A stretch of DNA of 62,328 nucleotides, filler included. It is 11 parts of 11 records of this genome, joined end to end, with 100 filler letters (N's around TTAATTAATTAA, not from the genome) between each part and the next. Parts side by side here need not be neighbours in the genome. Positions count along the whole stretch, not along the records: positions 8,877 to 19,538 come from SRR15195285_489; 10 more parts are not named here. One strand, given 5' to 3'. Under the pieces are notes generated by a model. That model had not been told where the DNA came from. It was given only the letters and a program-made list of their open reading frames with translations, and made no database searches. The position numbers and the translations under genes are program-made. Positions 8,618 to 57,892 of the stretch are shown here, one piece after another. Position 1 is the first letter of the stretch, and each line of letters opens with the position of its first letter.

Positions 8618-8990
8618 ACAACGCCCTCTGCCGGCCTTGTCTCCCCGGGGGGAGCGGGTCAGCTGCGGCTGGCGGCCACCGTCAGGATCCCCGACCCCAT
8701 CGACCGTCCATGGCTGCCCCACCGGTCTAGTCGACTCAGTCAGTGGGTCAGGATTCAATGCACAGGGGGGGGGGGGNNNNNNNNNNNNNNNNNNNNNNNN
8801 NNNNNNNNNNNNNNNNNNNNTTAATTAATTAANNNNNNNNNNNNNNNNNNNNNNNNNNNNNNNNNNNNNNNNNNNNATTGACTGGGGCGAAAAAGCGGAC
8901 TTTTCAAGCATACAGTTGACTGAGATGTGTCCCACCTCATAGAGCTGACTGCGGAGGTTCGACGACGGTACGGTACAGCGATCTGCCGCC

Positions 8991-10166
8991 ATGGCGGCCA
9001 GCTCGGCAGATGCGACGGCGTTCCTCTCGCAGGTGCTGCCAGACGCCGTGGCCTCACCAGTGGAGCAGCAGGCGCCGCCGCCCGGGCTGGCGCGGCAGTC
9101 GAGCGGCAATGTTGGCGACGGTGAGGGTGAGGCGTCCAAAGAAGCGGCGGAGAGTGCGGCGAAGCCTCGGCGCAAGCGGAAGCGGAAGCGGAAGCGGCGC
9201 TCGTCGGCGAAGAGCGGGGCGCCTGAGGAGGACGGCGCGGCGAGCGAGTCCGGCGCCATCATCACGACGGCCAGCGCGGCGGACGCCGCAGCGCAGCTGG
9301 AGCGGCAGGGGTCTAGCGGCAAGCGGCGGCGGACGCGTAATCGGAACACGCCGAGACGGAAACCGTGGTCGCAAATGACATGGGAAGAGAAGCAGGCGGT
9401 CGAGGAGCGCGAGGCACAGATGGCGGCGCAACGCGAGCGCGAGCGGCCGGAGCTGCCGATGGATCCAAACGGGCATGTCCCACGAGGGGTAAATCCACGC
9501 GACTATCGGCCAGCTGCGCCGCGCAACACGACTCAAGAGTTGCTAAAAGATGCGCGAGGCCGCCAGCGCTTCGGCAACGAGACACCCGAGTCCGGCTATA
9601 GCGACAACGACGGCCGCGCAGACTCGGACGGCTCGATGGGTGACGATGAGCTGGAGGACCTTGGTTCTGGATCGATGGCGGCCGCGTTCAATGCGCGTCT
9701 GGCCGGGCAGCCCACGCCCGCAGGGTCACCGCAGGACTCGGCGCTGGTAGCGACAGTCAAACGGCAGAAGCAAACAATCGAGCGATTAGAAAACGAGGTT
9801 GCAGCACTGCGGGCACAGCTACAGGTCCGCCTTACAGAATCGCCAGCGTCTTCACTGCCGCCCGCGACACCCCACTAGCATCAAACACCCGATCTGACGT
9901 TGCTATGCGCGTGCTACTATCATCAGGCGGTTGCAAACGCGTCCGCTGCTGCTGTGTCCCTCCCGTCGTCTGTCGGCGGCGGCGGTGGTCCCCGGGGAGG
10001 TGGAGGAACAGGGGGAGGTGGGGTGGGCGGACCAGCGGGACGCACCTGGGGGGAAGTGGGTGCTGCCTCGGCTGCAGTCTCGATGGTTCGGGTCGGTTCA
10101 ACACCGGTGGCGCCGAACGCAGCTGCTCTGGACTCACAGCGAGCAGCAGGGCGATCTCGCGACTAG
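8991..10166 (+). CDS. HEXIM-like protein (putative P-TEFb/CDK9 inhibitor homolog)
   Basis: gccATGg start; basic tracts KPRRKRKRKRKRR and KRRRTRNR; RKPWSQMTWEEKQAVEERE; PAAPRNTTQELL; acidic stretch; coiled coil. Intron 9825-9926; Gly-rich last exon. Confidence 0.7.
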
Positions 10167-10205
10167 TCAGTACAATAGCAACGGATGTTCCATTCACACC
10201 GTTTT

Positions 10206-11895
10206 CTACTTGGGAATGAGTTCCACGACATAGTGTCCAGTTAAGTGCTGGTACTGTTGCTGCGTAGCTTCCTTGCCGAGATCACCGGTCCGCACGTCGT
10301 CCTCCCGCTCAACATGACCCGTGCCACCCTCAACCATCCACACCTGCAGCCTGAAATCTTCCAACAGCCATTCAAAAAACGGTAGCTCTCGGTACCGCAG
10401 GCGGCGTTTGTATGCGAGAAAGAAGCGAGGAGGTCCGCGAGACTGTTCCAAGCCAGCGAAAAGACGCAGTGTCGCCAGGAACAATCCAAACGGACCAGGT
10501 CCTGCCAGTCCACAGCAGTTGTCGTGCACGTCATGAATACTGCTCGTAAAACGAGCGCAAGATATCGATCAAGCACTCACCATCTATCATACCGTCGGCA
10601 GTCGCTCCGAGCACATCTGCCGCAAGAACTACGTCCACGCCGCCAAGCGATGATGCCACAACCGATGTCGGCAGCGCATCCTCACCCCACATCAAAGGCT
10701 CAACAGTCACGACTGGAGCCCCCGCACCATCAGAACTTGCAGCACTCGCTGTGGACTGCCGCTGCTTGTCCCATAATGCACAATTTCGCGCAAGACTGTG
10801 GCGAGGTGGACCCAAAGCCTCGTCCATGTCTGTCAGCACGACGGATGAGGCACCGAGCACGGCCGCAGTCATCCCAGGCAATGCAGTCCCGCAGCCCTGC
10901 CACACCGAAATCATTTCCGGTATAAGGAGTTTACGCTGTCCCTAAGCTACCTGTCAGGAAGTGAGGCGTACAGATGATGCGCACCAACTCGATTACGCGC
11001 TGCCCACGGACTAGCTCAGGTTTGGCTTCGAGAAAATCGCACAGTCCTTTTGATGCATCCCAGACCACCCCAGCGGTAGAGGACATCACGACTTGCTCAA
11101 CATGCAGCGCAGTGCCCTGTGGCACCGAATGGGGTCGCGTGTGAATTCAACTCGCCAACCACGAAACAGCAACGGGACACTATGCGCACCGGACATGACC
11201 GCAATGGATGTGTATATGTTCCACTTCCCCAATTATCTTTGCCCACTCTACAGAGCCCCACCGAGAGTCACGTGTACAGCCATCAGTGAGCAGCGGTGCC
11301 TGCAAGAGTGTACTGGCATCGAATGGTGCGGCAGCGTGGTGGTGCCGGCGTGTGACAAGGCCGCAGAGGGGGGTGGGGCTTACTCCTCCGCGTCTTTGTC
11401 TGCTATATCAAACATGTCCGCGAACTGTGAGAGACATTCTGATGTCTCATCCCAGAAAGCTGCCGCCGGGTCAGGACCCTCGAAGACATCTCGCCAGTCT
11501 GCCAATTCGACTACGCCGAAATCCACTGCACCTGCGTCTGCCAGAGACACACCACTGGCTCCTGACCCGCCGATCCCAACGTCGACTGTAGTGGCTCGAG
11601 CAGCCAGAGCTCCAGCACATTGATCAGCTTGTTCATCATCAGCCATGATCGAGACGCTACACTCCCTGGTTCCACGTAACGACTCGCGCTGCCAGACGAG
11701 GCCGGGCCAATCTTGAGAGCTGACCACACGTACTTACGTAATGCTTGCACAGCCGAGTCCACGAACCGAGCCTCGTCAGCTCGTCGATGAGCGGTTTCGC
11801 ATCGTGTCCATCAGGTTGAGGGTAAGGCTGCGCTGCGCAGCAGGGTGGGAGCTCGTGCGTGCCTGCGCTACGTAGCGAGATCTGCAACTATCCAT
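10206..11895 (-). CDS. METTL21/Methyltransf_16-family protein lysine methyltransferase; multi-intron, 5' end approximate
   Basis: AGVVWDASKGLCDFL, RGQRVIEL|GCGTALPGM (motif I split by an intron), VVLTD, LMWGE, DVVLAADVL, FLAYKRR. Confidence 0.8.
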
Positions 11896-12472
11896 CGCGC
11901 GCGTCCGGTCATGCAAACCGCCGGCGCCGCGCGCGGGCGCGCGTGCATGCCTGCGCGCGTGTCTATCCTCTAGCTAGAGATACTATACTTCTATCTCTAG
12001 AGCGGACTACCGGCGCGGTACACATTATCATCAATGTTCAATCGCATTTCAGCATACCACCATATTATGCATACTGGTAGGGATCCCTCGATCCCTAGCT
12101 CGAGCGCGTCGAGGTACTACATGTAGGAATCCTAGTATGTTTTTGTACCGGCGGCGGCGCGCGGTACCGTATACGATTCGCGTCATATTATATGCAGGCC
12201 GCCGCCGGCGCGCGCGAGGCGCGTGCGTGCGCCGGGCCGGCCCGGCGCGCGGCGCGTATCCGCCGCTCTTGAGCGAGGCGGTGCTCGCCCTGGTTGAAGG
12301 ACGTTCTCTTCATGTGAGAGCAGTACAGTACGCACAGCCAACGCGCCACTACAGTACACGTTAGCGGCTGGCCGTCCAGCGCCAGAATGTGAGCACAGCT
12401 CTGGGCGTTGCCTGGTGCCCTAGCGCAGCGCTGTCACGAAGTCAACGAACTGGTTTGTTCGTCGAAGCATAT

Positions 12473-13585
12473 ATGGATAGCATCCCGAAGCCGATGCGCC
12501 TGATGGCTGCAGGCGCGTGTGCTGGGACTGTCACAAAAACATTCACCGCGCCCCTGGACAGAATCAAGGTACTGCTGCAGGTGCAGGCCATGAGTCCTGA
12601 CGAGAAGGTGGCGTCCAAGTACAACGGGATCATTGGATCGGTGCAACAGGTGCTTAGAGAAGAAGGGTTTCTCGCGCTGTGGCGTGGGAACTTTGCGAAC
12701 TGTGCCCGGATCGTGCCAGTGTATGCAAGCCGATTTGCATTCAACGACCTTATCAGAGACATGGTGATAGAAGAGGGGCAAGACCGGACCAGGCTGCGGC
12801 CGGAGCAAGCGCTTTTTTCCGGGGTCCTCGCCGGCCTTGCTCAGCAGTCGCTCTGCTATCCGTTCGAGACAGTCCGCACGCGGTTGAGCTTGGGGGTGCG
12901 TGATCGATTGATCAATAGTTCTGCGCATGAGTTTGCATTATTGTGTGGCGTGCTTTGGTGATGCCAATACCTGTGCTTGCTGCTACCATACGCGTACACT
13001 TGGGAATCGCGCAGGGCAAAGCCACCGGGCTCGGGCAGAGCTACAACGGGATGCTGGACTGTCTGGTCAAGACCTGCCGCATCGAGGGCATCCCAGCTAT
13101 CTACAAGGGACTCAGCGCATCCTGTCTGTATGGAGGTCCCTACGTAGGTCTGAATATGTCGATAAACGACATGACGAAGCGGATGCTCGCGGGGGAGGAG
13201 TCAACTGACTCGCTCGGGCTGGGTAGCAAGCTGCTGGCTGGCAGCGTGGCGGCCACCACTGCGCAAACAATTGTCTTCCCTCTCGACACTCTGCGGAGAA
13301 GGCTGCAGGTGCGTGTTAGCTCGACTTAACCGAAAGCAACCTTGTATCCCACAGTCCTGCTGTTTTGAGCGCATCGGCGCACTCTGTGCTTCGCAGGCCA
13401 ACGGAGAAGGAGGTACCCAGCGGCTGTATACCGGGCTTCTCGACTGCATCGGCAAGACGTACCGGTCTGAAGGAGTTCGTGGCTTTTACCTCGGTTGCAC
13501 GGCAAACGTGGTGCGTATGATCCCGACGGGCGCGATACAACACTCCGCCTATAGCTTTTTAAAGGATGCTTTCAATTGTTCCTGA
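12473..13585 (+). CDS. Mitochondrial carrier (SLC25), SLC25A16/A42-like by appearance
   Basis: Three PX[DE]XX[KR] signatures (PLDRIK, PFETVR, PLDTLR); introns 12896-13014 and 13309-13396; TGA ends 13585. Confidence 0.92.
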
Positions 13586-13762
13586 AGAGGTTCGCCGTGA
13601 CGTTGCTGGCCGAAGTCCTTGGGTAGCTACAGGTCTGAGCAGATGCAGCGCATCGCTAAATGCATCAGATCCTGTGGCCTGAGCACATCCATTTTCGTTC
13701 AACACGTTGTCGATAACCCATCTCCTTGGACTGAACGTTGTTCAAATAGCACGCTGGTGCGT

Positions 13763-16700
13763 CTAGAACAGCTGGCGGTCCTCCGGAAATCGTGCGGCAA
13801 GGCTTTGTCGGCACAGCAAATCCAAGTGCTCCCACCCAAGCTCCTTCATGAGATCCGCGCGCTCACCCCTGCGACGCACACAATCATGCATGTATGATTG
13901 TACATGTGCGGTAAAATCGTCTCGAGAGTCCGATGACAAGTTCAGAGACCATGACAGGAGCCGCTACTTACCAGGCATCGCGCGACACACCCTTATCCTC
14001 TTTCTTTATCGCCGCCTCCAATGCCTTGAGCGCACACGCAGTTCGACCGTGTGCCTTCTCCACCTTGACCATCAGCCTGTTCTCACAGCAAAATGTTTAA
14101 TCATTTCCCAATGTCAACCAGTTGTTTGGCAACATCAACGATTTCTGTGGAAATTTAGTGAAAGTTTCGAGCAGTACCGTGGAGCATGCTCGAGTGGCTC
14201 AACCCATCCGCTGAGCACTGCAACAGAGCACTCCAGCTCTGCGAGTGTACTTGGGTCCGCGCCGTCTCGCAGCGCGAGGGCTGCCTGAGCGGTTGCCTTG
14301 CTCACCTGTCACGCGTAGTTTGCCTTTAAACGCCATAAAGGCTTGCAGGAGTTTGGCGTGGCTCACGAGTGCTGCGAGGAGCGACTTCTTGAGGTTCTCA
14401 TCGTCCTGCCGGAGTTTCTTCGTCGCAGCATCGGCATCATCGAGGAGACGCTTCGCAAGCGCCGCCTGCGCGTCAACAATGTCGAATGCACACCTCTAAT
14501 GCAATTATACGCTAGCGACGGTTGTGACGTAGATCACGCAAAATTTAGCTGGCTTGGCTTGAGGGCACACCTGCACGCGGTCCGCGTCGATCTCAGCAAG
14601 CACAGCCTCAGCTGCAGACACGACGGCAGCCCACGCCGACTCAGCTTCTCCTTCCTCTGCCTTTTCGGCATCCTTTTTGGCACGCTCCATTGCCTCCTGC
14701 AGTAGTGAGCGAATCTATTATTAATAGACAGCTGTTCGAATAGTGAGTAAAGGAACAGCGGCCTGGCGATAATGTTTGTGCAGTGCTTTTGTCCTGCTGA
14801 CAATATACGGCACCCGGACTAGAAATCAGGTGCGATCGACAGACACGACGATCTCACCGAGAGCAGCGGCAAGTGTGTAGGATACTCCTTCAGCAGCTCC
14901 GCCAGCATCATTCCGTAGTCCTCTTTGTCCTTCGTTGCACTGAGCTGCTTAATCTGCAACTCGCGGATCGCCTCTTTATTCTTCTCCGCTTCGGAGCGCG
15001 TGTCCTCCGGCTCGTCAGCAACTGGTTTCGGCTCGCTCGCCAGTCCGGGCGGAACTGTGTAGCGTGCCGTGATACGAGCACTGCGCCATCGAACACCGAA
15101 ACCAAATCAGATACCTCCATGGTTCTGGTGGAAAGCCCAGCGTTAACAGCGCAGCGGTTGAAGACACATTGGATAGCTCACCAGTTGCTCTTGCCCTCAA
15201 TGAAGTCTTCCGCTGGAGCCGCAGATTCAAACTTGATCGCGCCCAGCAGTGTATCCCCCGGCTCAACACCTTTGATGTCTGTCGCAGCGCTGTCGTCAAC
15301 TGAGAAAAATATTGGCATGCATTCGCCGCCAGCGAGCCGCGTCAAGCTGGGTGCCTTGCCTGTGCACAGCATAACATCTCTCTCTCTCAGATCCCAACAA
15401 TTCCGACCAGAGACAGCATGCAATTTTTTGTCACACCAGTGCCTGCAATCGCGTTGTTGGCGCTGTTGTATGCAGTGAGCGGGACAGACTTTGGGAGATC
15501 AGTGTCTACCCCGATGACCTGTCAAACAAACATACATGCGCGCACGCACACGCACACGTACACATACACGTATCTCTCACCACGATGTTTTGAGAGATTA
15601 GACTGGTGCAGTCGCGCGCGAAGAATTCATCATACCATCCCAACAAAGGCTTTGAGGCTAGACGCCGAAGCTCCACGGATCTGCATGACCACGGTATTCT
15701 TGCCCTTCGGCAACTTCAGCTCCTCTGGCCAGGCATCGGAGGCACCAAGAAAGCGCTTGTGCTCGTCATAAACCATCATGAGCTGGCACATCAAACGATT
15801 TGTCAGATTCTCAATTGTTGCTTCTTCAGGGCAGATATCTGGGCGCACCTGTGACTCAATAGGATTCTCATACAGGCGATTCTGCACGCGGAGGGCACGG
15901 AGGGTAACACTGCTATCCTCTTTCAGCTCTAGCTCGTACTCCTGTTGCAGCTCGTGAGAGCGCTGCAAAACGATCGTGGCACATACGAGTTAACTCAAGC
16001 CAAGGTGCAAAAGAGGAAGTACACGACATTCGGGAAATGTTTGGGAACTCTTCTTACCTGCTCATCTGGGAAGAGGTCACGTTCTCCCAGTGGAACTATG
16101 CTAGCACCAGATTTCGGGCGCAACAGCCGACGTTGCACAGTAAGCGACGCCGAGGGCGAGACAGCTGTGCTGCCGATAGTTTCCGGCGCGGTAATGTCAA
16201 TGCGTGCGATGGACTGTGCGCCGTCAAGAACAAGGTCGGTCGTACTAGCTGTCACTCCGTGGAACGTAATTGATATCCCTGCTAGCCCTGAGCCAAGGCT
16301 CGACCAGAATTGCGCCAGGGTCAGCTCCAGCGTCCGTCCTCCCCAGACCTTAAACTTGTGAACCTTTTTGTCTCCTTGATTCGCAAACCACCGTGGCTTG
16401 TGTTCCGTGAGCGAAAACGGCACGTGCGGGACCAGCTGCAGAGCGTGCATGTACAGCATGCGACGATCTCCTCCTAGACCTGTGTACGAGTCCATTCCCA
16501 CTGTCACCTCAGCCCAAGTAGCGCCAGCTGGGACCGCAATGAAGTGGCGATGAATTGCCCCAGGCGACATTTGCAGCGATTTCGGCGGTGCACACACAAC
16601 CTCAGGGGCACCCGCCGCACTGACATCAACCCCGGTGGGTTTCATCACGCAGACTGGTACACGGAAAAGTGGTTGACCGACTTCGCCCTCGGGGCTAGGT

Positions 16701-19128
16701 GCTTCATAACCTAAAACTTCAGCATGGTGTGCTGCACCTTCGGGGAGTGCAGTAGTGTCGACTGAGACATTGAAACCTGCAATAAGAGACACCGCCCGTG
16801 TTCACAAAAGCATTACGCAATTGCATATATACTCGATGCTGATGTGTACATGCAATTCGTATGCGCAGCTCTGTGACCGCAAGTACAGCAAGTGCTACTG
16901 GAGAGGGAGAAAGGAGGTGGGTGCAGAAACATTCGTCTCAGTGTGACGTACCACGACCTGTGGCCATCAGCACCAAAGCTGATGGTACTTTGATCCAGTC
17001 CACGGTCGGCACAAGAAGTACATGAGACTCGAAATCAATCCGCAATTGGTTGTCGGATTTCATCACACGCGATCCTGTAGGCGCCGAGGTCTGGTCTTGC
17101 ATCCGCGGTGTAACGGAAACCATCACCTGCTGCGTCCCCATCTCGCATGGCTCTCGTAGGTAAATTCCTTTCTTAGGAGCGCCAGAGCCTGCGAACACAA
17201 CACCAGGTAGCAGAATTCATATAATCGATTATTGATTCTGCTCGCTGATCTATACTCGCTGCCCTTGTGAAGATGTCTCTGCTAGTTTCGTTTCGTCTAT
17301 TGGCTGCTTCGTTATTCTGCTCACCATGACCTGGCATGCTGACGCTGACGTCGTAGCTGATATCATCTGTCCACTTATCCGCACGCGACTTGAGGTATTC
17401 GAAGCACGCATCGACCTACTCCAGCGTAATCCAGCGCACAGCGCAGCAGTTCAGCAGTTCGGTCGTGTATGACTTTTCGCGAAGAATCCAGCAACGGGGA
17501 TCAAGTACCTGGACGATGCCGTGGCCCACCTCCGAGCGGTCGGCGCCCGGCAGCGGCTTTGCGGTGCTGATCAACGCGTGCCGCACGCGCGCTGGTGTTG
17601 CGGGGATTGAATGAGCCTTGCACGCAGAAAGAACCAGAGCGACACAGCCTGTGAGGTTCGGAGATGACATCGAGGTACCTGAGGTTCGACACAGCCCGTG
17701 AGGTTAGAAAATGACACCCAGGTACCTGAGGTTAGGAGATGACTCGATACCGTTCATCAGCTGGCCGCGTTGTAGAGTCCAGGTTGGGACTGATGTGATA
17801 GCTGCCCCAGGCGCAGTAAGCTGTACGCCTTGAGAGCCGTCCTGAGCAGGCCCACGGCTGGACCATGTCGTCATGGTACTCGGCACCTTCTCAAGCATCG
17901 AGTACTCAGCCTCCATCATTGCTGGTGTCACGTACGCTCCACAAGAGATAATCTCTTCACAAGTCCCACCCGGTGCCCCGACAGTCGTGTATGCGGGCCC
18001 GTTGTTCCCCGCAGAGGATATAAAGATGATGCCGTGCTTGTTGACCACCTCGGCGGCCTTCTCAAGGAAGCGCCCGGCATTTGGTGGCGATGCGGCCTCA
18101 CCGAAGGAAAGATTGATGAGGTCACAGCCATTGTCCAGCACAGTGCGCAGCCCGCGGACAAGCGCCGAAGCAGTCTCCATACCGTCCAGCCGCGAGTCAC
18201 CGATCTTCACAGCGACAATCTGCGCACCGGGCGCCACCCCGTTGAACTCGGGGGCATCTTCGTGGCATGCGCCCACGATGCCGGCGACATGCGTGCCATG
18301 AGCCCCACTGTCGCATACGACGCTGAGCACGCTGCCTTCGTCAAAGATATTGATGGCATAGTTCATCAGCGTACCTGCAGGGTCGAGATTCTCGCCCGTG
18401 AACGTCCCGTACTTGCGTTCTGCGCGGAAGTTCGTGAGTGGCTCGAGGGCCGAGACGTCACCATCATCAGTCGTGCCGACCACCGCTCGCCAGTCAGAGC
18501 CGTCGTGCCACACGACCGCATCAATCACGGGCCCCAAATCCTTCACTATCGACTCTGCACTCTCCAGCTGCTCAAGGTGCGCCTTGAGCTCCCGCTGTGT
18601 GGCCTTGTCCTCCTCGCTGAGGGGTTTGCTGACGGGATGGGCCACCTCGAACTCGCTCAACACGGTGCGTGCCTTAGTGGTGGCGGCCCGCTGCGCCTCA
18701 TCGAAAAATTTCTTGCGCGCCTTCTTGATCCGGCTCGCTAGCCCACCAGGAATGACATCGTAGAGCGGTTTCGCCCCAACTCTGAAGTTGCCGGTCGGAT
18801 TCGACCACCCGTCGTTGAGGGTGATTGTGCGCCCTGACTTGCCCTCGATGGTGAGCTTGCCGTCCGCCACTTTCGCTTCCCGCACGGTGCTCGTGTCGAT
18901 GTCGCCCGAGCCAGTGGCGTCCACAACGTCGATGACCTTCGGCCTGCCGTCTGGGCACGTCGCGTTCAGCCCAGGAGCCCCCGGGTCCGTACCCGTGTCG
19001 AGAATCGCCACCACCACATTCCGTCCGTCGCACTCCGGATACTTCGACAGGAACATCTCCGCCTGCGTGCTGGCCGTCGGCACCCGCACCGAGTCCGCAG
19101 GGAACGTCGCCGTCGGCTGCTCCGCCAT
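13763..19128 (-). CDS. TPP2: Tripeptidyl-peptidase II (subtilisin S8 family); multi-intron
   Basis: Catalytic motifs VAILDTG, HGTHVAGI, SAGNNGP and MNG|TSMSSPN (restored by splicing 17750-17679); C-terminus LMKELGWEHL..RFPEDRQLF-stop typical of TPPII. Confidence 0.95.
17679..17750 (-). other. 72-nt intron made of degenerate tandem copies of the downstream exon
   Basis: Intron gtatcgagtcatctcctaacctcag|gtacctgggtgtcattttctaacctcacgggctgtgtcgaacctcag vs exon gtacctcgatgtcatctccgaacctcacaggctgtgtc; contains an in-frame TAA. Confidence 0.9.
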
Positions 19129-19638
19129 CCTCCCACCTGAATACGTCTGTACGCGAATTCCGCTGCTGCGACGCCTCCAGCACGGCGCACGGGCGCTGCT
19201 CTGCAACACGAGGTGGCTGCGCCCGGATCCAGTAGAGCGCCTCGCCAGCGTCGGCAGTAGCGAGCCTCGCGAGCACCGAATTGTGAACCAAAACTGTTGC
19301 ACACGATGGCCAACAGGCACTCTACACGTACCCAGTATATATAGATAGTAGGCAGAGACTGCGCACGGACAGCCGTGTACACCTGAGGACGACTATCACT
19401 GCTCCTGGCGGTCCCTCGCGCTCGCGATCAGCCAATCGCGCCGCGCGCCGCGCCCCCGCGCGCGGCGCGGGCGCGGGGGCACGCGTGCTGACTCGGGCCG
19501 GGGACATTGGCCATGACAATGTGATTTAGCGGTCGGGGNNNNNNNNNNNNNNNNNNNNNNNNNNNNNNNNNNNNNNNNNNNNTTAATTAATTAANNNNNN
19601 NNNNNNNNNNNNNNNNNNNNNNNNNNNNNNNNNNNNNN

Positions 19639-24834: not shown

Positions 24835-27800
24835 CTATGCGCAACCGCAACTTGTTGACACGTTCAAAGTACGGCCACTCTCGCCCGCATCCTGTGTAGC
24901 GTGCCCCACCGAAACCAGCGTTGCGATGATCGACGTTGCTCCACCTCCGACCATGGTCGAGAACTTCGTCAAAGTACGCTTATCGACAACAAGCCCAAAG
25001 ATCTTGACTGTAGCAAGATAGTCGTCGCGTCAAAAGCAACCCATTCATCAGTCAAATGTGTAGTATCAAGAGCGTGGCGGTACTGACATACTATGAACTG
25101 AAAGGTGTTGGGCGAAGTGACCTACAGCCAAGTCCTTGTCCTGAGTTCAGATTCATCAGCGACTCACGCAGCGCTGCACAACGATTCTTGTGTGGCATAC
25201 CACCCAAAAAGCTCACGTCATTTAGTTGATCGAGAAGTTCGTCACAAGAGGACGAAACCTGGGCCGGGGCAGCCAAAATCATCAGAGGCAGCACTGCTGT
25301 CCCAGCCAGTCCTATTTTTATCGCTAGAGTATCAGTTGCGACCGCATATGGCACCGCGCAGAGCGTAAATGCCCAGAACCCCAGCATCGTCGCACCCATC
25401 GCTGTGCCCTACCACGCCACAATGCAATTCAGCTATTCCACAGAACGCTTGCAGGCAATCGAACAGGTTCAGACTCACCCAGGCCGACAGCACCTTGAGC
25501 GTCGAGACAATCATCGTGCATGGCTGCTGGACGCGTGTTATCCAAGTCGCGCGCCCGGTGTCTTCCCCGAGGTATTGTTGCGCGGCAAGTGGGCCAAGAT
25601 CCTTCATCAGATCATCCACCGCATCTTGCGCCAGCGTCACGGCAAGGCACAGAGACAATTGCCAGGCCGGGTAGACTACTGAAAAGAGCATAGCAGCTGG
25701 CACCCAACATATCACCAGCAAGACTGCGTAGACGGTCTGCATCGTGTTCGAAATACAGCCCACGGGTGGAAAGAAAAACTGCGCAATACCACCGTCCAGT
25801 TTTTCGCTGAGTATGTCATCGTCTGAAGACCACAAATGATCGGCTATAATTGAAACGAAAGCGACCAATGTGAAAACCACCAAAACGAGCAATGTTGCGG
25901 CAAGCAAAATCGTAATGTAGAAGCAGATGTGCAGCCAAGCAATCGCATTGGCGTCGAGTTCCACGCGCTCGACACCAATTCCATCCGCCCTCAGCCTCGA
26001 AGTCGACGTATGCGAAAGCAACGCAATCCCACCGAGCGACACAACCGGGAAACTACCTGTCTTTGTACCCTCTTGAACAGAGGGATCAGTGACAAAAGCA
26101 ATCGCCCCAGCTTCGTTCTTGGATTTCATCCTCAGCTCTTTTTCGTACTGCTGCTGCGCAACGTCATGTAGGTGGTGTACAGAGAATTTCGCCATGTTCG
26201 GCACCATCAGGTGATGCAAAGAAACATTCTTGGTGGCCGGTATCATTTCGTAGGTGAGCAGTTGCCACTTGAGACCAAAAAGCGACCTATCGTACCAGAA
26301 CCGAGAGGAATATTCTGTGATGAATGCGTCTAGAGCCTGGGAGGCCTTGTCTAGTTCGGCTTGGAGTTGCTTCTTACTCTGGGAACGAAACAACCGGAAC
26401 CCCGTGTCATCCTGCGCCAGCTCCTGTTCTTGCACCAGCTCCACCAAGCGGACTTTTTCGGCGCTGAGCATTTCATACTTACGCAATTTTTCGAGTGCCT
26501 TGGCTATACACTCAGGAGTCTCCATGGTTACAATGCCGTAATGTGCAATCGGTGCTGACTGAGAATCGCCTGCTTGCGTAATTCTCTCATCTAGCGTGCC
26601 GTCATCGTCGTCACTGCGTTGCAGCACGTAGACTCGAGCGCTGGCCACTGTTCCAACTTTAGAAAACATGTCCCGCAGCTCTTCGTCATTCATACTTTCC
26701 AGAACGTTAGTCACGTACAGCGTTCTCCCCTCGTAGCTCATGGTGCCGAAGGCCTTGTCAATCAACTCGATACTTGTATTCGAGAATCGCGGACGTCGGG
26801 CGCGCATAGGCATGCGGCGAACAGATTCAGAATGAGTAGGGGATAAATGAGGCAGCTCCCCGTGAGATTCCTTGGAAGCGGTTGATGGTATCGTTTCGGT
26901 CAGGGTCATCGTTGTAGTGTCGCTGAGATCAGCGTCGAACTTCTCACCTGCAACTGTAACCTGCGCGCTCTGCATACCATCGACAGCTGACTTCGACAGC
27001 TGACTTTGCGCTGCTTCATCAAAATCTTTCCAGCCACTTTCATCGTCAGGTTTGAACTGCCAGTGTAATCCTGGGACGGTTGCAGGCAGTCCACTGACCA
27101 AGTTGTCTGTGCTGTTTTCGCTTTGTTCGTTCGCAGTCGAACGCTCGGGCGGTTTGTCCGAGGCAGCGTCACTTTGATCTCCCGCAAGTGATGTTGGCGC
27201 CAGGGCCCATTTCCTGAGCTGATCAAGAGTCACCTTTGATTTATCGCAATCTTGGAAGCTTGGATGGGTGCGGATGAAGCCAGTTTCTTGCTCTGAAAAT
27301 GTCCGCCGCTTCAGGCCCAAGAGTTCCGTGCTGCCTGGTATATAGTCACTTGTGCGCATCCAGCTGAGCTCATCTAGTCCCTGTCGCTCGGTGTACAGAA
27401 CCCCGAGCTCACGGATCAGCAGCTCGTCCCGAAGAGTCTCGCGTGTGGCTTCCTTTTGAAGATCGATGTCAGCCCATTCCAGCTGAATATTTTCTACCGG
27501 TGGTGGTGACGGCGGTGGCGGCGGCGATCGTGGTGACAACGTCCCCGGCCGACTCGATGTTCTCACACTGCGGTTGCTCGGAGAGGTGGCACGCAGGTCA
27601 TTCCTGGCCTTCCTGGCCTTCCTCTTTTTGCGTTGGGTCTTCATCTCCACCAAATATTGTTGCTCGTGCTCTACAAGTTCCGTTCCACGGTGGGCGCCAC
27701 GAACTGCCTCTACAAGCCCCCTGAACTGGAAGAACCACGCACATGTGAAGACAAAGATACCGACCCCGAGCATTGCATCGACAGGTGCACTCACGGTGGC

Positions 27801-28256
27801 ACAGCCGTATGCGAATTCTAAGACGTAGCCAACTGAAGCCACGAATGGCGCGGCAACCATTAAGGCGCGGACTACCATGTTCAGCGATTTTTTCTGCAAG
27901 ACGACAGAGATCCATCCGTCAAACCACTCCGGCGCCAGTTCGACTTTTGAGCGTGTGCCGTGGTGAGTCTGCTCTCCCGCAGCATTGTCCCACCCTTCAG
28001 TCACCAGCCCTGCGTGTACGCTCTCCTCAACGCCACAGGACAGCTCGCTGTACCCCGTTGATCCGTCCCGTAGTCTCTGCGATGTCAAAATCACAGTGCA
28101 TGAGACAGTATGGGCGATAGGCAGGAAAACCTCCCTTCAAAGTTGGAGTGACGGAGAATTTAGATGGACTGCTGCGATGAGACGCTATAGTGTAGACACA
28201 GAGAGCTGACAGGTCATTCCACTCACGGATCGACTGGCTGAGTCCACACTGCGCAT
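24835..28256 (-). CDS. Gustatory-receptor-like 7TM (7TMIC/DUF3537-like) protein with inserted WWE and RRM domains
   Basis: gccATG 28256; introns 28226-28077, 25478-25409, 25125-25008. Two N-terminal TMs, WWE-like WQFKPDDESGWKDFD..VTVAGEKFDADL, RRM RTLYVTNV..LRDMFSKVGTV..YGIVTM, further TMs, and PAQVSSSCDELLDQLN..GQGLGFKIFGLVVDKRTL. Confidence 0.75.
28057..28234 (-). mobile_element. Spliced MITE-like element, copy A (178 bp)
   Basis: 10-bp TIR GTCGATCCGT/ACGGATCAAC (9/10); donor GTGAGT at 28226, acceptor CGCAG at 28077; homologous to 43756-43924. Confidence 0.85.
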
Positions 28257-39072: not shown

Positions 39073-39179
39073 NNNNNNNNNNNNNNNNNNNNNNNNNNNN
39101 NNNNNNNNNNNNNNNNTTAATTAATTAANNNNNNNNNNNNNNNNNNNNNNNNNNNNNNNNNNNNNNNNNNNNGGGGGGG

Positions 39180-42100
39180 ATGAGCTCGGAGGAGGAGGAG
39201 GAGGAGGGGGCCGGGGATGTGTTCGATATGGAGGCGATGGCAGTGCCGGAGGTGCGGCGGCAGTCGCCAAACCGCTCGCTGGCGTCGATGCGAGGGATGA
39301 TGTCGGAGGTGGGGACCGCCGGGACCCGCACGCTGGCATCGATGCGCGGGACAAACTCGCAGGATCTGCCGCCACGGAACTCTGCACGGCGTGGCTCGGT
39401 CGTGCAGGTGGGTGGGCGCTCCACCGCGCTGTCCCAAAGCGCGGAGCTAGCTGTGACGCTGCGGCGGCTGAAGGCTGCGAACGAGACGGGCGACCCCAAC
39501 GTCATGCAAGCAGCGCTGACCGCCGCCGGCGCCGCGGCGCACATGCAAGGGCCGGAAGCCGCGGAGCTGCAGGCACTCGCCATGGCTGTGGCAAGCCGCC
39601 TAGCCGACGACAAGGAGTTCGCCAAAACAGGTCGGCTCCGCAGGTCCGGCCAGGTTCGGGCACGCGTGCGGCGCTTATGGGACCTGATGGTCGCCGAGAC
39701 GACGGCCATCCGCAAGGAGAGTGGCATGATGCGGCCTGGGGAGACCGCACAGGACGTCACACTCGAGGCATACCGCAATATGCACATCCGTGTAGCCAAA
39801 GTCCTGGCCTTCAGGGACGAGTTTGACAGAGAGGAGGCGCTCAAGATTGCAGACCAAGACTGGGCTGAGGATATCTCGCGCTTCTCTGGGACAAGCCACA
39901 TTACCGTCTGGCTGGATGAGATCCGTACGAAGTTCAAGGAGGCCTCGGCACGCGCAGTGGCGGAGCATAGTTTCCGTGAGCTGTTTCGGACGTTCGATGC
40001 AGACGGCAGTGGCGAGCTCGATCGCAAGGAGTTCCGACAGGCGGTAAGGGAGAAGCTCCACATATCGGAGGAGACAATCACTGAGGGGGAGGTGGAGGCA
40101 CTGTTTGACGCCGTTGATGCAGATGGTAGCGGCGAGGTCGACAGCACTGAGTTTGTTGCGTGGCTATTCCCAGCCAAACTTGCGAAGAGTCCTAGCGTAA
40201 TGAAAGGTGGCAGGAAGAAGCGCAGTGCAAAAGGGCTGGTTCGCACCAGTTCGGAAACTGCACTGAAGCAGCGCTTCCGAGAGGCATCTGAGCGGATGTC
40301 GCAGGCTGTCGGGTGGGAGATTATCTTCCAGAAGTATGACGATGACAATTCGGGCGAGCTTGAGATAGATGAGTTCACGCGTGCTGTGCGGGAAGAGTGT
40401 CAACTGACAGAAGATGCAGTGCCGGACACCGAGATCGAGGAGCTGTTCGGTGTGATCGACGCAGACCAATCCGGGGCCATTGACGCGGACGAGCTTGGGG
40501 AGCTGCTGAATGCCAATCTTGGCACAGCAACGATGACCTTTGGGCCTTTTTACAGCAGCATATTCGAGCTGGTCTCCGTGTGGGTCCCTGTCGAGAACGA
40601 GAGCTCCTACGTGCGGTTCCTTGACCATGTCTTCAATTCAATTACAGATGCTATCAACGGCCATGAGCTGGACCTTGATACGGCGCGTGTACCGGTGTTT
40701 GATGACGGAGATCAGCTGGTTGCAAACTTCCGCCTCAAGCAACTTAATGAGTGTCTGTCATTGGTGACGGAGGATGGCAACCTCGATATGGTTGACCTGG
40801 ACACTGTCAATGCACAAGATATTCTACCAGAGAACAACCCAATGTCACCGGCATACATCGAAAACAAGCAGGCGAAGGGCCGAGAACGGAGGAAGTCCCT
40901 CAGTGCGACGGTGTCGAACTCTTCACTGACATCGCCAAGAACACAGACCGGGAGCAACCCAGAGTTGCCCACCCCCTCGCCTCAGGAAGAATCGCTCCCC
41001 GTGCTTCCTGAGACGGAAGACACAGGCGAAGATGAGGATACGGAGCCATTACTGGAGCCAGAGGCGGAGCCGGAGCAGCAAGAGGCACCAGCGGCCATAA
41101 TGCCGCGCAAGCAATTCCAGCCGCGACCGCCACCGCCGAAGCTCACAATGAGCGATGACATGTGTGACGACATCAATGCGGACAAGTTTGGTGAGGGCGG
41201 GTGGCGCAGATTGGCATCTCCTGTATCAAATGCTATAGACGCGAAGGCCAAGACACGGCACGGCGATCTCCGGGCTACCGTTGCGAGCCACTGGACTTAC
41301 GGTGCTGTGCCACCTAGCTTACGGTACGGCTCCACCACAGCTGCGCCGCCGCCAGCAGCAATGGGAGCAGGAATGCAAGTCGGAGCGGATGGGTATCAGA
41401 AACAGTCCAAAGACCTGCCCGCTGTGCGTTTAAACCCATCAAGGGCTGCCGGGATGGACTTGAGTCAGCCGGAGCCGAGGAAGAAACCGTCTAGCCTTGC
41501 TGGTAAGGGAAAGGCTCAAAGACTCAAAAAGAACGGCAAACCACGGCCAACGGTGCGGGTTGACGCTATTGTCGGTACTGGGCCGCTTAGCGGCCGGCGG
41601 CTCTGGTCATCCGGCGGCATACCACCACCACCTTCCACGGCGGGAAGCCGGCTCACAACGCCTCGTGTGTTGGGTGCCGCTGGCTTCCGATTCGCGCCTC
41701 CACCATCAAGGAGGGCTGGCTCCGGCGCTCTCGAGCATGAATTTCAGAGGTCGTCGACTAGCTTGACCCGTGCTCAAACCGTGGGGGTATCTACGGAGGA
41801 ATCGTGGAGGAGCCCATTTGAAAAAATCGGGGGACGTATGGCCCCACCGATGGCAGCGGCAGCAATCCCTAATCGTCCACATACAGGTCATTGCACTCTG
41901 CAGCCACGTAAGCGACCGGCAGCGGTGGCCAGCGTCTTGCTGCGTCCCGCCGCCGTGCCGTCGGAAGGTAACACGGCGCGCGAAGCGCTGGGATACGACG
42001 AGGCACCGCTGTATCTCCATCTGATACCTGGTGCGGTGCCAGGCACGCCACGGAGCACACGAGGTCTGCGGACCGGCGGCATTTCTCTTCGCGCGCCTCT

Positions 42101-42281
42101 ACTCAGTCCTGGAAAACCGCACCGAGGGCTGCCACACAATCAGTTTGAACTGCCGACAGTCGATCTGGCGAGTGCCGTCGCCGCCGGTCAGGACCTACCA
42201 GCTCAAGCTGGACCTAAGCCCGGGTCTTGGGGCCGTCTGCCGCCTGGGCAGACCTCGTTGCTAGGCGTTGCAACGCGATGA
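39180..42281 (+). CDS. EF-hand protein with four canonical EF-hands and long low-complexity C-terminus (5' possibly truncated)
   Basis: DADGSGELDRKEF, DADGSGEVDSTEF, DDDNSGELEIDEF, DADQSGAIDADEL in a 1033-aa ORF. Confidence 0.85.
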   Translation: MSSEEEEEEGAGDVFDMEAMAVPEVRRQSPNRSLASMRGMMSEVGTAGTRTLASMRGTNSQDLPPRNSARRGSVVQVGGRSTALSQSAELAVTLRRLKAANETGDPNVMQAALTAAGAAAHMQGPEAAELQALAMAVASRLADDKEFAKTGRLRRSGQVRARVRRLWDLMVAETTAIRKESGMMRPGETAQDVTLEAYRNMHIRVAKVLAFRDEFDREEALKIADQDWAEDISRFSGTSHITVWLDEIRTKFKEASARAVAEHSFRELFRTFDADGSGELDRKEFRQAVREKLHISEETITEGEVEALFDAVDADGSGEVDSTEFVAWLFPAKLAKSPSVMKGGRKKRSAKGLVRTSSETALKQRFREASERMSQAVGWEIIFQKYDDDNSGELEIDEFTRAVREECQLTEDAVPDTEIEELFGVIDADQSGAIDADELGELLNANLGTATMTFGPFYSSIFELVSVWVPVENESSYVRFLDHVFNSITDAINGHELDLDTARVPVFDDGDQLVANFRLKQLNECLSLVTEDGNLDMVDLDTVNAQDILPENNPMSPAYIENKQAKGRERRKSLSATVSNSSLTSPRTQTGSNPELPTPSPQEESLPVLPETEDTGEDEDTEPLLEPEAEPEQQEAPAAIMPRKQFQPRPPPPKLTMSDDMCDDINADKFGEGGWRRLASPVSNAIDAKAKTRHGDLRATVASHWTYGAVPPSLRYGSTTAAPPPAAMGAGMQVGADGYQKQSKDLPAVRLNPSRAAGMDLSQPEPRKKPSSLAGKGKAQRLKKNGKPRPTVRVDAIVGTGPLSGRRLWSSGGIPPPPSTAGSRLTTPRVLGAAGFRFAPPPSRRAGSGALEHEFQRSSTSLTRAQTVGVSTEESWRSPFEKIGGRMAPPMAAAAIPNRPHTGHCTLQPRKRPAAVASVLLRPAAVPSEGNTAREALGYDEAPLYLHLIPGAVPGTPRSTRGLRTGGISLRAPLLSPGKPHRGLPHNQFELPTVDLASAVAAGQDLPAQAGPKPGSWGRLPPGQTSLLGVATR

Positions 42282-43924: not shown

Positions 43925-44091
43925 TGTCTGTACCACAGCCTGCCCTCGGCTTGCCCGCTGCAGCACCACACGATGCGGTGACTGACCAGTGGCAGTGAGT
44001 GATCTCGTCGGTCAACACCGCGAGGACCTCGTGGGCAGCACCGTAGGGACAGTGTGGAGCGGTGTCGCAGCTGTCTAGAGGACGCGACGAG

Positions 44092-47000
44092 ATGCCGAGG
44101 CATGGGCGCACGACCGTGGGTGTGGCGGGGCGCGGGGCTGGGCGTGGGCGGGAGCTGGAAGAGGCGTGGCGCTGCCTGCGCACAACCAAGGTCCGGGCGG
44201 CATACTCGCGAGATAGTCAGCGGATTGGGGTGATCGAGCGTGGCGAGCTGGTCAAGTCCATCGAAGAGCGCACAGACGAGCTCGGCAGGCCGCAGCATCG
44301 TCTCAGCTGGCCCCTGAAGGGATGGGTGAGTGAGACTACCAGCAACGGTGACGTGGTGTTCTGTTCAGCTGAGACGGACGACCTTTCATCTAGCAATGAC
44401 GATATGATTGAGACACGCCCCGATAGCCGTCGACGATCTCAGAGCACTGCGGTGACCCGCGGCCGCCGGCAGCCCTCGCCGCAATCGAGAACGAATCGGC
44501 ACGAGGCTGAGCAGTTCGTCTGCCTGAACCGCGCGCCGCTACGCGTTGGATTGGACATGCTGTCGGAGCGAGCTGGGTTCGTCGAGCCAGGCGATATTAT
44601 TAGAGTGCTAGATGTCCGATTCAACGATAAGGGGCAGCGACAGCTACGCTGCGAAGCTGGATGGGTGATGGAATACGGCTGGACAGGAACGCAAATGTTC
44701 CAGCCGCTCGACCCAACCGCGGCGATGGGCGATTCCTCATCTTCGTCCGAGGGCGTGCAAATAGCAATGGTTGTAGAACGGGAGCTTTCTCGTCGTCAGT
44801 CACGCTCGCCGAGTCCCGTGCGTCACCGGCGTCGTTCGAGTTCGCGCTCACCGTCGTCACCGGCACGCCGCGGCTCGTTGAGCGCACGCAGACGACGTGC
44901 TGAGCAACGCAGCCCTGGGGGGCGCAGCATGTCTGCAGGACGGGCACGAAGGCGTACGCGGCGCCTCTCTGCCGTCGGAAGCGAGCACAGCGACGTCTCT
45001 GGTGACGAAAGCTTGGTGGATGGCAGTCACACAGAGGCACAAGCACGTGAGTATTTTGCAACAATGCTAGGGCTGGCGGGAGCAATCACAGACAGTCATA
45101 TCGACAAAGCGATGGGCATGGCAGCGGAGCGCGGGCTAGTTAACGCCGCGCAGTGCTCGCGGATAAAGAGGCAGGCAGGACGTGCGAAGATCGTGACTGC
45201 ATTCAACATCATGAATGCGGCAGGGTCAGTGCAGCACCGCCGCTCTCGCACCGCGGCCGTGGCAGAAGCGCAGCCTGTTCGGCGCACGTTGAGCCCGAGG
45301 TCACAGCAACGTTTTGTTTCACGGATGCAGCAGGACGCTCAGCAGCGCGAGGAGTATCTTGATCAGTTGCGGGACCTGCACTCTGAGCAGCACTCGCGAC
45401 GAGCGAAATACATCGACCGGCGCGCGCACGAGGACTTGCTGGCACGCATGGAAGCGCACACACACCAACGCGAAGAGGAGTTGGAGCTATATCGAAGTAG
45501 ACCTGACCTAGTGGACCCGCACCTTGTATTTCAGCCAACTATCAACAGACGGGTGCCCAGCACTCGAAGGAGATCTTCTCCGGCACGCTCTCCAATGCGG
45601 CGTGCGGAAAGTCGCCACCTGGACCAAATGAACGCAGCCAGAGCCAGGGCTGCTTCCATAAATCGGAACACGCACTTGCGCCGCCCAAAATCACCACGCC
45701 GGACTAATTCGCCTGAGTTGGTTCCAATTTCAGACAAAAGCGTTCTGCGGGAACAAATTATCGAGATTTTTGAGCTGCACAATCCAGCTAAGCTGGACAG
45801 CGTGGATACTTTAATCGAGAAGTATGGCGCGGAGCCATTGCTGCGTCGGATGGAAGATAAGTACTCACGCACGCTGGAACCAATTGAGAGATCGCTGCGG
45901 GTGCGATCGCCAAAGCAGTTGCAGAGCCCTCGTGGCGGAGCGACGTTGAGTCCAAAGAATCGGCGTGTTACCTCGGCTCGGCGGCGGCAGCCTGTCAACA
46001 AGGGCACGCTGAAAACAGCCTCGGTCTCGCGCAATCTACCTACGCATGCAAGCCCAGGTCGCACCCGAGGTGATTCGCCAGGGCGGCAGCAAGGCGATAG
46101 CGTCTCGACGCGCGCAGAGGTATCGCACGACGACTACTCGGATGAATCAGCTGAAAGGATCGCGCTGAGCCGAAGCCGTAGACGGTTGCGCCCAGATTCA
46201 GCGGCTCGTGCAACTTCAGCGAGCAAGTCTCGTGCAACTTCAGCGAGCAAGTCGTCGAGCCGTCGTCGTTCTCCGTCACCGAAGGCGAGGGGGAAACTGC
46301 GGGCGAAGGATAGAGACCGGAGGCCTGCACGCAACGCGCCACCAGCAAGAAGCAAGGAAAGTGGCTTTCGCGCAATGCCAAGGCTCACACAGGATCAGAA
46401 ACAGGTCATAAATCTCTGTGTGAGTATGGTGGACCGCCACGGCACAGGCTTTGAGGCCAAGCTTCGGAATCATGCATCCGAGGATCCTCTGCTCGAGTTT
46501 TTCCTCGACAAAACCTCAGATGCGTGGAAACACTACCATCAGATTTTGAACGACATAGACCGTCGCAAACCATCCAACTTCAAGCAATACCTGGAGAGCA
46601 TGGTGCTGACTGATGTGAGCGCGGTCAGGCGCGCCCTCGAATGTGAACGTATCGAATCTATGGATGACTGGGATGCCTTGGATGAAGCTGAAATAGATGA
46701 CCTCCTGCGATTCTTATCGTCGGCATCGAACATCAAGGATCGAGACCTTGGAATCATCGAGGGCCACTTGCGTGGAGATTTGCATGCGTTCGACAATTTT
46801 GCACGCCGCCAATCAACCTCTCCATCCAGAAACCGTCGCAAGGACGTAAGAGGATCGTATCCAGAACCAGAGCCTGAACCTGAACCGGAGTACAGGAGCC
46901 CTGTGCACGAAGACGGTCGATCTGCTGGAACACTAGGTACAAGATCTAGTGCCAGTGGCGGCAGCAGGCACATACCTGCTCGCACTGGCTCATCTAAGTC

Positions 47001-48564: not shown

Positions 48565-48664
48565 NNNNNNNNNNNNNNNNNNNNNNNNNNNNNNNNNNNN
48601 NNNNNNNNTTAATTAATTAANNNNNNNNNNNNNNNNNNNNNNNNNNNNNNNNNNNNNNNNNNNN

Positions 48665-57611: not shown

Positions 57612-57892
57612 AGTTCTGAAAGCTCACTGAGAGATCTCTCCCTCACATCAACGCAAGCGGCCTTGGAGGGAGCGACCGCAGGCGGGTCCTCGGGTGCAGT
57701 GGTGGTTGGGCAGGGTGCGTGCTGAAGACGGAGCCGGTGTAACGCGTCGGGCTCGCGAGCCTGGAGGGCAGAGAGTGCTGCGAGCGGTCTGTACTAGTGC
57801 GCAGATGGTTGGCTCGGCAGCCAGTTCAGTGTGACTGGGTCGGGCTGCGGTCGAGCCAGCTGTAGTGAGCGCACAGGACAGACTGCGCAGCA

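Follow-up and report, generated by a model that had tools for sequence, protein, structure and literature searches.

A putative HEXIM-family protein of the long-linker type encoded on a marine protist contig

In the literature (PMC10083321; Chivu et al., bioRxiv 10.1101/2023.02.19.529146), HEXIM and 7SK RNA are linked to promoter-proximal pausing and regarded as having arisen in Metazoa or, at the earliest, in Holozoa. Human HEXIM1 is described as a disordered protein with a linker helix (residues 171–194) between its basic region and the PYNT motif, followed by a C-terminal coiled coil (PMC12901311), and with a conserved Pro-Ser at the junction of its basic segments, of which there are two (PMC12901311, PMC10083321). 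Five of its residues, Tyr203, Phe208, Phe262, Phe267 and Tyr271, are reported to be needed for binding or inhibition of P-TEFb, with Phe262 and Phe267 forming the contact to cyclin T1 (PMC6838758) and Tyr271 being named by Chivu et al. Chivu et al. report orthologs in choanoflagellates and ichthyosporeans and note briefly that HEXIM-like sequences are patchily distributed outside Holozoa, which renders dated the statement, made in a first-pass annotation of the DNA studied here, that HEXIM is described mainly from Metazoa; in full-text literature searches this was the only work found to mention HEXIM outside Holozoa. Here we describe a HEXIM-like gene on record SRR15195285_489, which occupies positions 8,877–19,538 of the window (the whole stretch of DNA analysed, 62,328 nt with filler, in which 11 parts of one genome are joined end to end). 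The reading we favour is that its product is a divergent member of the HEXIM family, belonging to a long-linker type with a scattered distribution among unicellular eukaryotes.

When the predicted protein was compared with Pfam, HEXIM (PF15313) was its top match, at 20.0 bits and an E-value of 8.4e-4, the best stretch aligning residues 124–152 with profile positions 2–30 of 142. A word-indexed search of 5.8 billion proteins returned eight close relatives, and similar scores were obtained within the family (21.7 bits for P0007, 19.8 for P0004 and 18.5 for P0003); among eight family members PF15313 was matched at E up to 1 by seven, with a best E-value of 8.7e-05, the next most frequent families being SlyX and NST1 with four each. 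The alignment of the family from the word-indexed search (A1) was used as a profile query against 1.84 billion representatives, yielding 57 proteins at E up to 1e-3, 18 of them at E up to 1e-10. Leaving aside four members of the family itself, a 2259-aa repeat protein and a 46-aa fragment, we scanned the remaining 51 with Pfam: 13 reached the HEXIM cut-off (29.3 to 155.9 bits), HEXIM was the best but sub-threshold match of 12 more and 26 were without any family, so that no family other than HEXIM was the best match of any of the 51 scanned proteins. Library-wide E-values to the proteins passing the Pfam HEXIM cut-off ranged from 4e-20 to 5.6e-4. Finally, a profile–profile comparison (hhalign) of A1 with an alignment of seven verified HEXIMs (A2; 73–156 Pfam bits) gave a probability of 98.9 % and an E-value of 2.7e-17 over 65 columns at 40 % identity, spanning residues 109–189 of our protein with one 16-residue gap on the HEXIM side. 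The proposal of a deep-branching HEXIM was borne out to the extent that both the profile search and the profile–profile comparison tie the family to proteins above the Pfam HEXIM cut-off. From these comparisons we consider it highly probable that the protein is homologous to HEXIM; at the level of segments, the sequence comparisons provide good support for homology of its second basic tract, its KPW..WEEK helix and its APRNTTQ motif to the basic region, linker helix and PYNT segment of HEXIM, in that order.

Convergence or chance would offer a different account, in which two short motifs happen to match and the basic, acidic and coiled-coil segments are of the kind common in disordered nuclear proteins. 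In its favour, the profile check suggested by the first-pass annotation did return HEXIM at an E-value of about 1e-3, but with its 20 bits the protein stays under the gathering cut-off of 29 bits and by the Pfam rule is not a member. Likewise, a profile search of solved structures, run to an E-value of 10, retrieved no HEXIM chain (an RSK1 peptide at E 0.018 being noise), and Foldseek returned no match to the PDB at E up to 1e-3 for the predicted model described below. The HEXIM1 structures in the PDB, however, as tabulated in a review (PMC10083321), comprise only the arginine-rich motif (ARM) peptide and the coiled-coil domain; as they omit the matching segment, a structure search could not find it and the negative result from solved structures is uninformative. 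Moreover, the chance explanation is brought close to refutation by the hhalign E-value over 65 columns together with a stepwise succession of intermediates, in which the family described here is followed by Cafeteria (39.9 bits), then by Sphaerothecum (43.7 and 44.8 bits) and finally by the HEXIMs at 73 to 156 bits. We therefore regard a chance resemblance as very improbable. Further searches added little: residues 105–278 had a best score of 0.75 in the ESM Atlas, which gave no lead; for the BT1 ORF of the window the same atlas yielded names of families and nothing more; a further word search for named relatives produced 16 matches and no new named taxon save a chance plant match at E 3e-4; and a metagenome scan with P0004 found no match.

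All of the elements that had been listed for this locus, from the Arg/Lys tracts through KPWSQMTWEEK and APRNTTQELL to the acidic region and the coiled coil (here a heptad helix), were found in the order claimed in the plus-strand frame that opens at 8991 (Table 1). The same order is seen in animal HEXIM1 and HEXIM2 (PF15313), where a basic region is followed by a KP[YW]..TWEEK helix, P-x-N-T-T-Q, an acidic region and a heptad helix. The protein begins with MAASSADATAFLS, a start shared with the homologs P0003, P0005 and P0006. Its second basic tract, a putatively RNA-binding Arg/Lys-rich region lying directly before KPW, runs straight into KPWSQMTWEEK (residues 124–134) and pairs, in the hhalign comparison, with the KKHRxG..KRKW stretch of the verified HEXIMs. 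Further along, the equivalents of Pro202, Asn204, Thr205, Thr206, Gln207 and Leu209 of animal HEXIM are retained; the P-x-N-T core and the T-Q after it are present as P177-R-N179-T180-T181-Q182, and the replacement of PYNT by PRNT that had been noticed earlier is indeed found, in APRNTTQELL. The surrounding residues P164–Q182 form the most conserved, invariant block of the family, which takes in P164–P174 of the insertion ahead of PRNT; P177, N179 and T180 are invariant in a 21-row alignment of long-linker proteins (A4), and across all 57 rows of alignment A3 only P174 and P177 are. Part of the acidic region is also invariant in the family (G214, G217–D219, D223–G225 and G227–A230). Compared with animal HEXIM, our protein possesses an extra basic tract, set 35 residues further upstream, and ends in a Gly/Ala-rich tail that bears a conserved motif of its own; this motif, AAVSMVRVGSTPVAPNAAALDSQR, is kept in P0003, P0004 and P0008 as well as in L001 and L002, two metagenome contigs of relatives, and a Pfam search of the tail gave no family match. 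The AAGCGG repeat that encodes the KRKRKRKR of the extra tract (9168–9199) draws many contigs of 31–32 nt from marine RNA libraries, to a depth of up to 700; these probably come from unrelated genes with the same repeat, and depth at these positions is for that reason uninformative for the HEXIM-like gene.

Table 1. Positions of the HEXIM-like gene, its parts and other genes in the window (residue numbers refer to the predicted protein)
Feature	Window position	Strand	Basis and remarks
HEXIM-like gene, start codon to stop codon	8991..10166	+	Stop TAG 10164-10166; ORF list and sequence
Exon 1	8991..9824	+	278 codons; carries every HEXIM-like feature
Basic tract 1, residues 58–75, KPRRKRKRKRKRRSSAKS	9162..9215	+	Resembles a nuclear localization signal; 13 of 18 K/R; coded by AAGCGG repeat; conserved in the family
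Basic tract 2, residues 109–123, SGKRRRTRNRNTPRR	9315..9359	+	8 of 15 K/R; position like the HEXIM basic region/ARM
KPWSQMTWEEK motif and linker helix, residues 124–152	9360..9446	+	Pfam HEXIM profile positions 2–30; hhalign; predicted helix 131–150
Long-linker insertion, residues 153–175, PELPMDPNGHVPRGVNPRDYRPA	9447..9515	+	Faces the 16-residue gap of the verified HEXIMs (hhalign)
PYNT-equivalent APRNTTQELL, residues 176–185	9516..9545	+	Sequence, hhalign, motif scan
Acidic region, residues 196–226, with conserved GDDELEDLGSGSM	9576..9668	+	11 D/E against 1 K/R
C-terminal heptad helix, residues 247–278, putative dimerizing coiled coil	9729..9824	+	a/d positions L/I/V/M in 7 of 8; AlphaFold2 prediction
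Putative phase-0 intron	9825..9926	+	102 nt, GTCCGC...ATCAG; in-frame TAG 9876-9878
Exon 2, Gly/Ala-rich tail	9927..10166	+	79 residues and stop; translation
Conserved tail motif, clade-specific	10071..10142	+	Aligned with L001 and L002
Methyltransf_16 (lysine methyltransferase) gene, convergent downstream	10241-10914	-	Same neighbour and orientation in L002, 1180-1983 (-)
Tripeptidyl-peptidase II gene	15678-19125	-	At least three GT..AG introns of roughly 100-180 nt
WWE domain and partial RRM frame	25332-28136	-	934 codons
EF-hand-pair ORF	39129-42281	+	1050 codons
EF-hand-pair ORF	44047-48612	+	1521 codons
EF-hand-pair ORF	57869-61927	+	1352 codons

In order to compare linker lengths, 62 proteins were scanned for KP[YWF]..W.E[KR] and P-x-N-[TS]-[TS]-Q, and both motifs were present in 27. 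The spacing from KP[YWF] to PxNT was bimodal, with no intermediate among these 27: in 21 proteins, termed the long type, it is 52–58 residues and the residue after Pro is R, K or H, whilst in the other six, the short type, it is 35–38 residues and Y, F or W stands after Pro. The Pfam-strongest HEXIMs fall among the six short-type proteins. With 53 residues from KPW to PRNT (LPMDPNGHVPRGVNPRDYRPAAPRNTTQ) our protein belongs to the long type, the additional length relative to all six short-type HEXIMs being a conserved insertion, PMDPNGHVPRGVNPRDYR; the pattern P.D..GR..RGV...DYRP ahead of AP[RK]NTTQ is common to Cafeteria, Sphaerothecum and other long-type members. Named proteins of this type are a transcript of the bicosoecid stramenopile Cafeteria (P0011, 39.9 Pfam bits), one from the glaucophyte Cyanoptyche gloeocystis (P0017, 27.2 bits) and two from the ichthyosporean Sphaerothecum destruens (P0029 and P0031, 43.7 and 44.8 bits), to which, on our own reading of its sequence, Syssomonas (P0038) may be added. 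EukProt assigns the nearest named relative of our protein to a single-cell assembly of Picozoa, and DNA of other cells can be present in assemblies of this kind. What is shared with the long-linker proteins includes not only the linker and its insertion but also R, K or H at the position of Tyr203 (all 21), an acidic stretch with G[ST]M and, after it, the terminal heptad helix. The clade of our protein differs from the other long-linker proteins in carrying Glu rather than Phe after TTQ in six of its seven members (a Glu at the Phe208 position that is specific to them, the seventh, P0007, keeping QFLM), in having KPW in place of KPY, in its KRKRKRKR tract and C-terminal tail, and in its lower Pfam HEXIM scores (18.5–21.7 bits in the four members that were scored singly, against 39.9 for Cafeteria and 43.7 and 44.8 for Sphaerothecum).

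A tree of the core region, which was unrooted and built from the 32 of 57 rows that contain both motifs (25 rows being excluded), grouped the six aromatic rows together (branch support 93/89), with none of the 26 rows of the R/K/H/M type among them, and recovered the family of our protein as a clade of seven rows (support 99/98), the remainder being unresolved. The occurrence of the long form in an ichthyosporean makes the short aromatic form look derived, which is a judgement from distribution and not from a rooted tree. The patchy HEXIM-like sequences mentioned by Chivu et al. (2024) probably include these long-linker proteins.

Structure prediction with AlphaFold2, run on our protein with the 57-row alignment, gave a mean predicted local distance difference test score (pLDDT) of 65.8, with most of the N-terminal 120 residues under 55. 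A helix at residues 131–150 (pLDDT about 93, range 93–94) was predicted between the basic tract and PRNT, within blocks of 85–94 over residues 121–170 and of 79 for residues 171–180, and two further helices were placed at residues 181–193 and 247–277, the latter with a pLDDT of 91–97. The predicted picture matches the experimentally determined architecture of human HEXIM1 (PMC12901311, PMC10083321).

If the protein also works as HEXIM does in human cells (PMC12901311, PMC10083321, PMC6838758), it would be nuclear and would dimerize via its C-terminal helix, and the basic tract adjoining KPW would bind a structured RNA. Binding of this RNA would free the invariant RGVNPRDYRPAAPRNTTQ segment, i.e. 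the PRNT block, from the acidic region, and the freed block would then occupy the substrate site of a CDK9/CDKC-type transcription kinase, with a cyclin of the T/K type and another RNA in place of 7SK as the probable partners. By analogy, we give an RNA-gated kinase-inhibitor mechanism of this kind, taken as a whole, an even chance. The conservation of P164–Q182 around PRNT is as expected if this block is the working site. Furthermore, published surveys record LARP7 from stramenopiles, alveolates and amoebozoa and Bin3/MePCE from every eukaryotic lineage (PMC7928011, PMC8917221), so the other proteins of the 7SK core are not restricted to animals.

Several observations weigh against this reading. 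In the predicted protein, Arg178 stands in the place of human HEXIM1 Tyr203 and Glu183 in that of Phe208. Phe262, Phe267 and Tyr271 have no alignable counterpart, hhalign reaching only to residue 189 and Pfam to profile position 30, and Phe233 in GSMAAAFNARL is not equatable with any of the three. The heptad helix is about 32 residues long, compared with a coiled-coil domain spanning residues 254–359 in human HEXIM1 (PMC12901311), and the basic segments are joined by N-T-P (T-T in P0002 and P0006) where HEXIM has Pro-Ser. A search of the 62 kb window with Rfam gave no matches, either at the gathering score or at E up to 1. Finally, according to Chivu et al., cyclin T arose in the common ancestor of choanoflagellates and animals, and many HEXIM-like sequences lack the key residues.

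Much of this can also be accommodated by supposing that the protein is a true HEXIM homolog with another role, as a nuclear, dimeric, RNA-binding adaptor rather than an inhibitor of a CDK9-type kinase. Inhibition of P-TEFb would then be a later development, dating from when the short-linker (animal-type) form acquired its aromatic residues and its long coiled coil for binding cyclin T. The substitutions at the Tyr203 and Phe208 positions, the lack of counterparts for the three distal aromatic residues and the short helix all fit this view, as do the separation of the aromatic branch in the core tree and the clade's conserved tail motif, which is absent from other HEXIM-like proteins; in addition, Chivu et al. 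tie the key tyrosine to the pausing index, besides dating cyclin T as above. In disagreement with it, however, the PYNT-equivalent, with Thr205 kept, is the invariant block of the family and the part best conserved across long-linker proteins, a constraint that is hard to explain without kinase binding as the function, and P0007, from the same clade, has the animal-like QFLM. On balance we put the probability of such another role somewhat short of even, and regard it as the main rival to the kinase-inhibitor mechanism.

The span assigned to the gene by the first-pass annotation, 8991 to 10166, has the correct end only if positions 9825–9926 are spliced out; the frame is not open throughout, and the uninterrupted ORF from 8991 specifies 295 aa and ends at TAG 9876–9878, a length shared by four of the seven members of the 90 %-identity cluster of our protein (the others having 117, 173 and 306 aa). 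Removal of 9825–9926 (GT..AG, phase 0) would give a protein of 357 aa. In P0004 (..LRAQLQ) and P0008 (..LRKQLA) the heptad helix continues directly into AVANAS.. or AIANAS.. and a Gly/Ala-rich tail, and positions 9927–10166 of the window encode the same tail in the same frame, beyond the 102-nt GT..AG stretch with its stop. The helix and tail are likewise contiguous, and the 102-nt stretch missing, in L001 and L002 (68 and 69 % identity, respectively), such that LQ|AVANAS or LA|AIANAS joints occur in L001, L002, P0004 and P0008 with nothing between. When exon 2 was aligned with L001 over 64 codons, 21 were identical, 31 differed only synonymously and 12 changed the amino acid, the differences by codon position being 9/8/39. 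This is the signature of a translated frame, and it is on this ground that we prefer to regard 9825–9926 as a phase-0 intron, with 357 aa for the full protein. For exon 1 (273 codons aligned with L001) the corresponding differences are 34/30/135, and codon-position counts of this kind indicate that both exons are under purifying selection.

Other findings point the opposite way. The contigs of four marine RNA libraries, in which uncovered parts of the gene are uninformative, gave no sign of a spliced junction, and contigs running unspliced through the stretch were found in X2 (9741–10015) and X1 (9656–9908 and 9883–10049); possible sources are DNA carry-over, intron retention or a tail-less product of 295 aa. 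The 5′ site, GTCCGC, is a weaker match than those of all three tripeptidyl-peptidase II introns in the window (GTGAGC, GTACGT and GTAAGA, with 3′ ends of TGCAG or TTGCAG). The conclusion regarding HEXIM does not depend on the intron, because all HEXIM-like features lie in exon 1. Separately, the HEXIM-like frame of L002 stops right past NTTQELL and restarts in another frame near the acidic region (positions 684–796 of that contig), for which an intron placed differently or an error in sequencing could account; P0008, which comes from a similar organism, is uninterrupted at this point.

As to the origin of the DNA, contamination by a metazoan, or recent transfer from an animal, would provide a trivial explanation for a HEXIM-like gene. 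No evidence for it was found; what can be said in its favour is that a gap at 8777–8876, consisting of N runs around a TTAATTAATTAA linker and read as an assembly gap, ends 114 nt upstream of the start codon and leaves the scaffold join uncheckable from the window alone. As a consequence of this gap, the promoter and part of the 5′ untranslated region are unsequenced. The protein itself argues against an animal source, being of the long-linker R type and not of the short aromatic type of the Pfam-strong HEXIMs, and falling in a separate and well supported clade. The convergent Methyltransf_16 neighbour recurs beside the gene in L002, a relative's genomic contig. A tripeptidyl-peptidase II (TPPII) fragment is 44–55 % identical to the best 120 listed proteins, with oomycetes, animals, Chlorella and planctomycete metagenome-assembled genomes alike; with identities so similar across groups, the fragment shows neither a close named relative nor an affinity to metazoans. 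The other ORFs of the window also count against contamination in that they include a BT1 transporter, alongside the subtilase/TPPII, a GH95 domain, a WWE and RRM protein and three very large EF-hand proteins. We hold metazoan contamination or recent transfer to be very improbable, and the original assignment to a protist stands, the contig being not metazoan-like. Seawater RNA libraries, among them two oligo-dT libraries from two studies, contain contigs with an identity to the gene of at least 99 %, and we take the source to be a marine protist, its lineage being placed no more exactly than this.

With regard to the remaining genes, the three EF-hand ORFs, one of which has a C2 domain and one a cyclic-nucleotide-binding domain, look like a cluster of large calcium-signalling proteins, judging from their domain content. 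The WWE and RRM frame does not, on the present evidence, qualify as a LARP7 candidate, as it is not a La-module protein.

Sequences of this kind are already in print, and the function discussed here is inferred by analogy. What is new is the statistical link to HEXIM of a family that stays below the Pfam threshold, the distinction between long- and short-linker types together with the conserved insertion, Glu183 and the C-terminal tail as features specific to the clade, and the two-exon gene model; with only 20 Pfam bits, the protein could have been missed by the survey of Chivu et al. A bolder scenario, which we consider unlikely at present, is that the HEXIM module is much older than Holozoa, and that in diverse protists a long-linker protein of the Arg/Lys type, acting with an unrecognized Pol III RNA, LARP7 and Bin3/MePCE, gates a CDK9/CDKC-type kinase, the 7SK small nuclear ribonucleoprotein of animals being a derived and shortened version. 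If so, the protists concerned would be the marine lineage described here, a bicosoecid and a glaucophyte, and the animal form would have come about through loss of the insertion and gain of Tyr203 and the long cyclin-T-binding coiled coil, rather than as an animal or holozoan invention. The split between long and short linkers suggests which changes may have occurred on the way to the animal form. A HEXIM homolog from a marine protist without resemblance to metazoans, in which constraint is strongest on the PYNT-equivalent, offers a handle on whether RNA-gated control of the elongation kinase predates animals and, if so, on which RNA is used.

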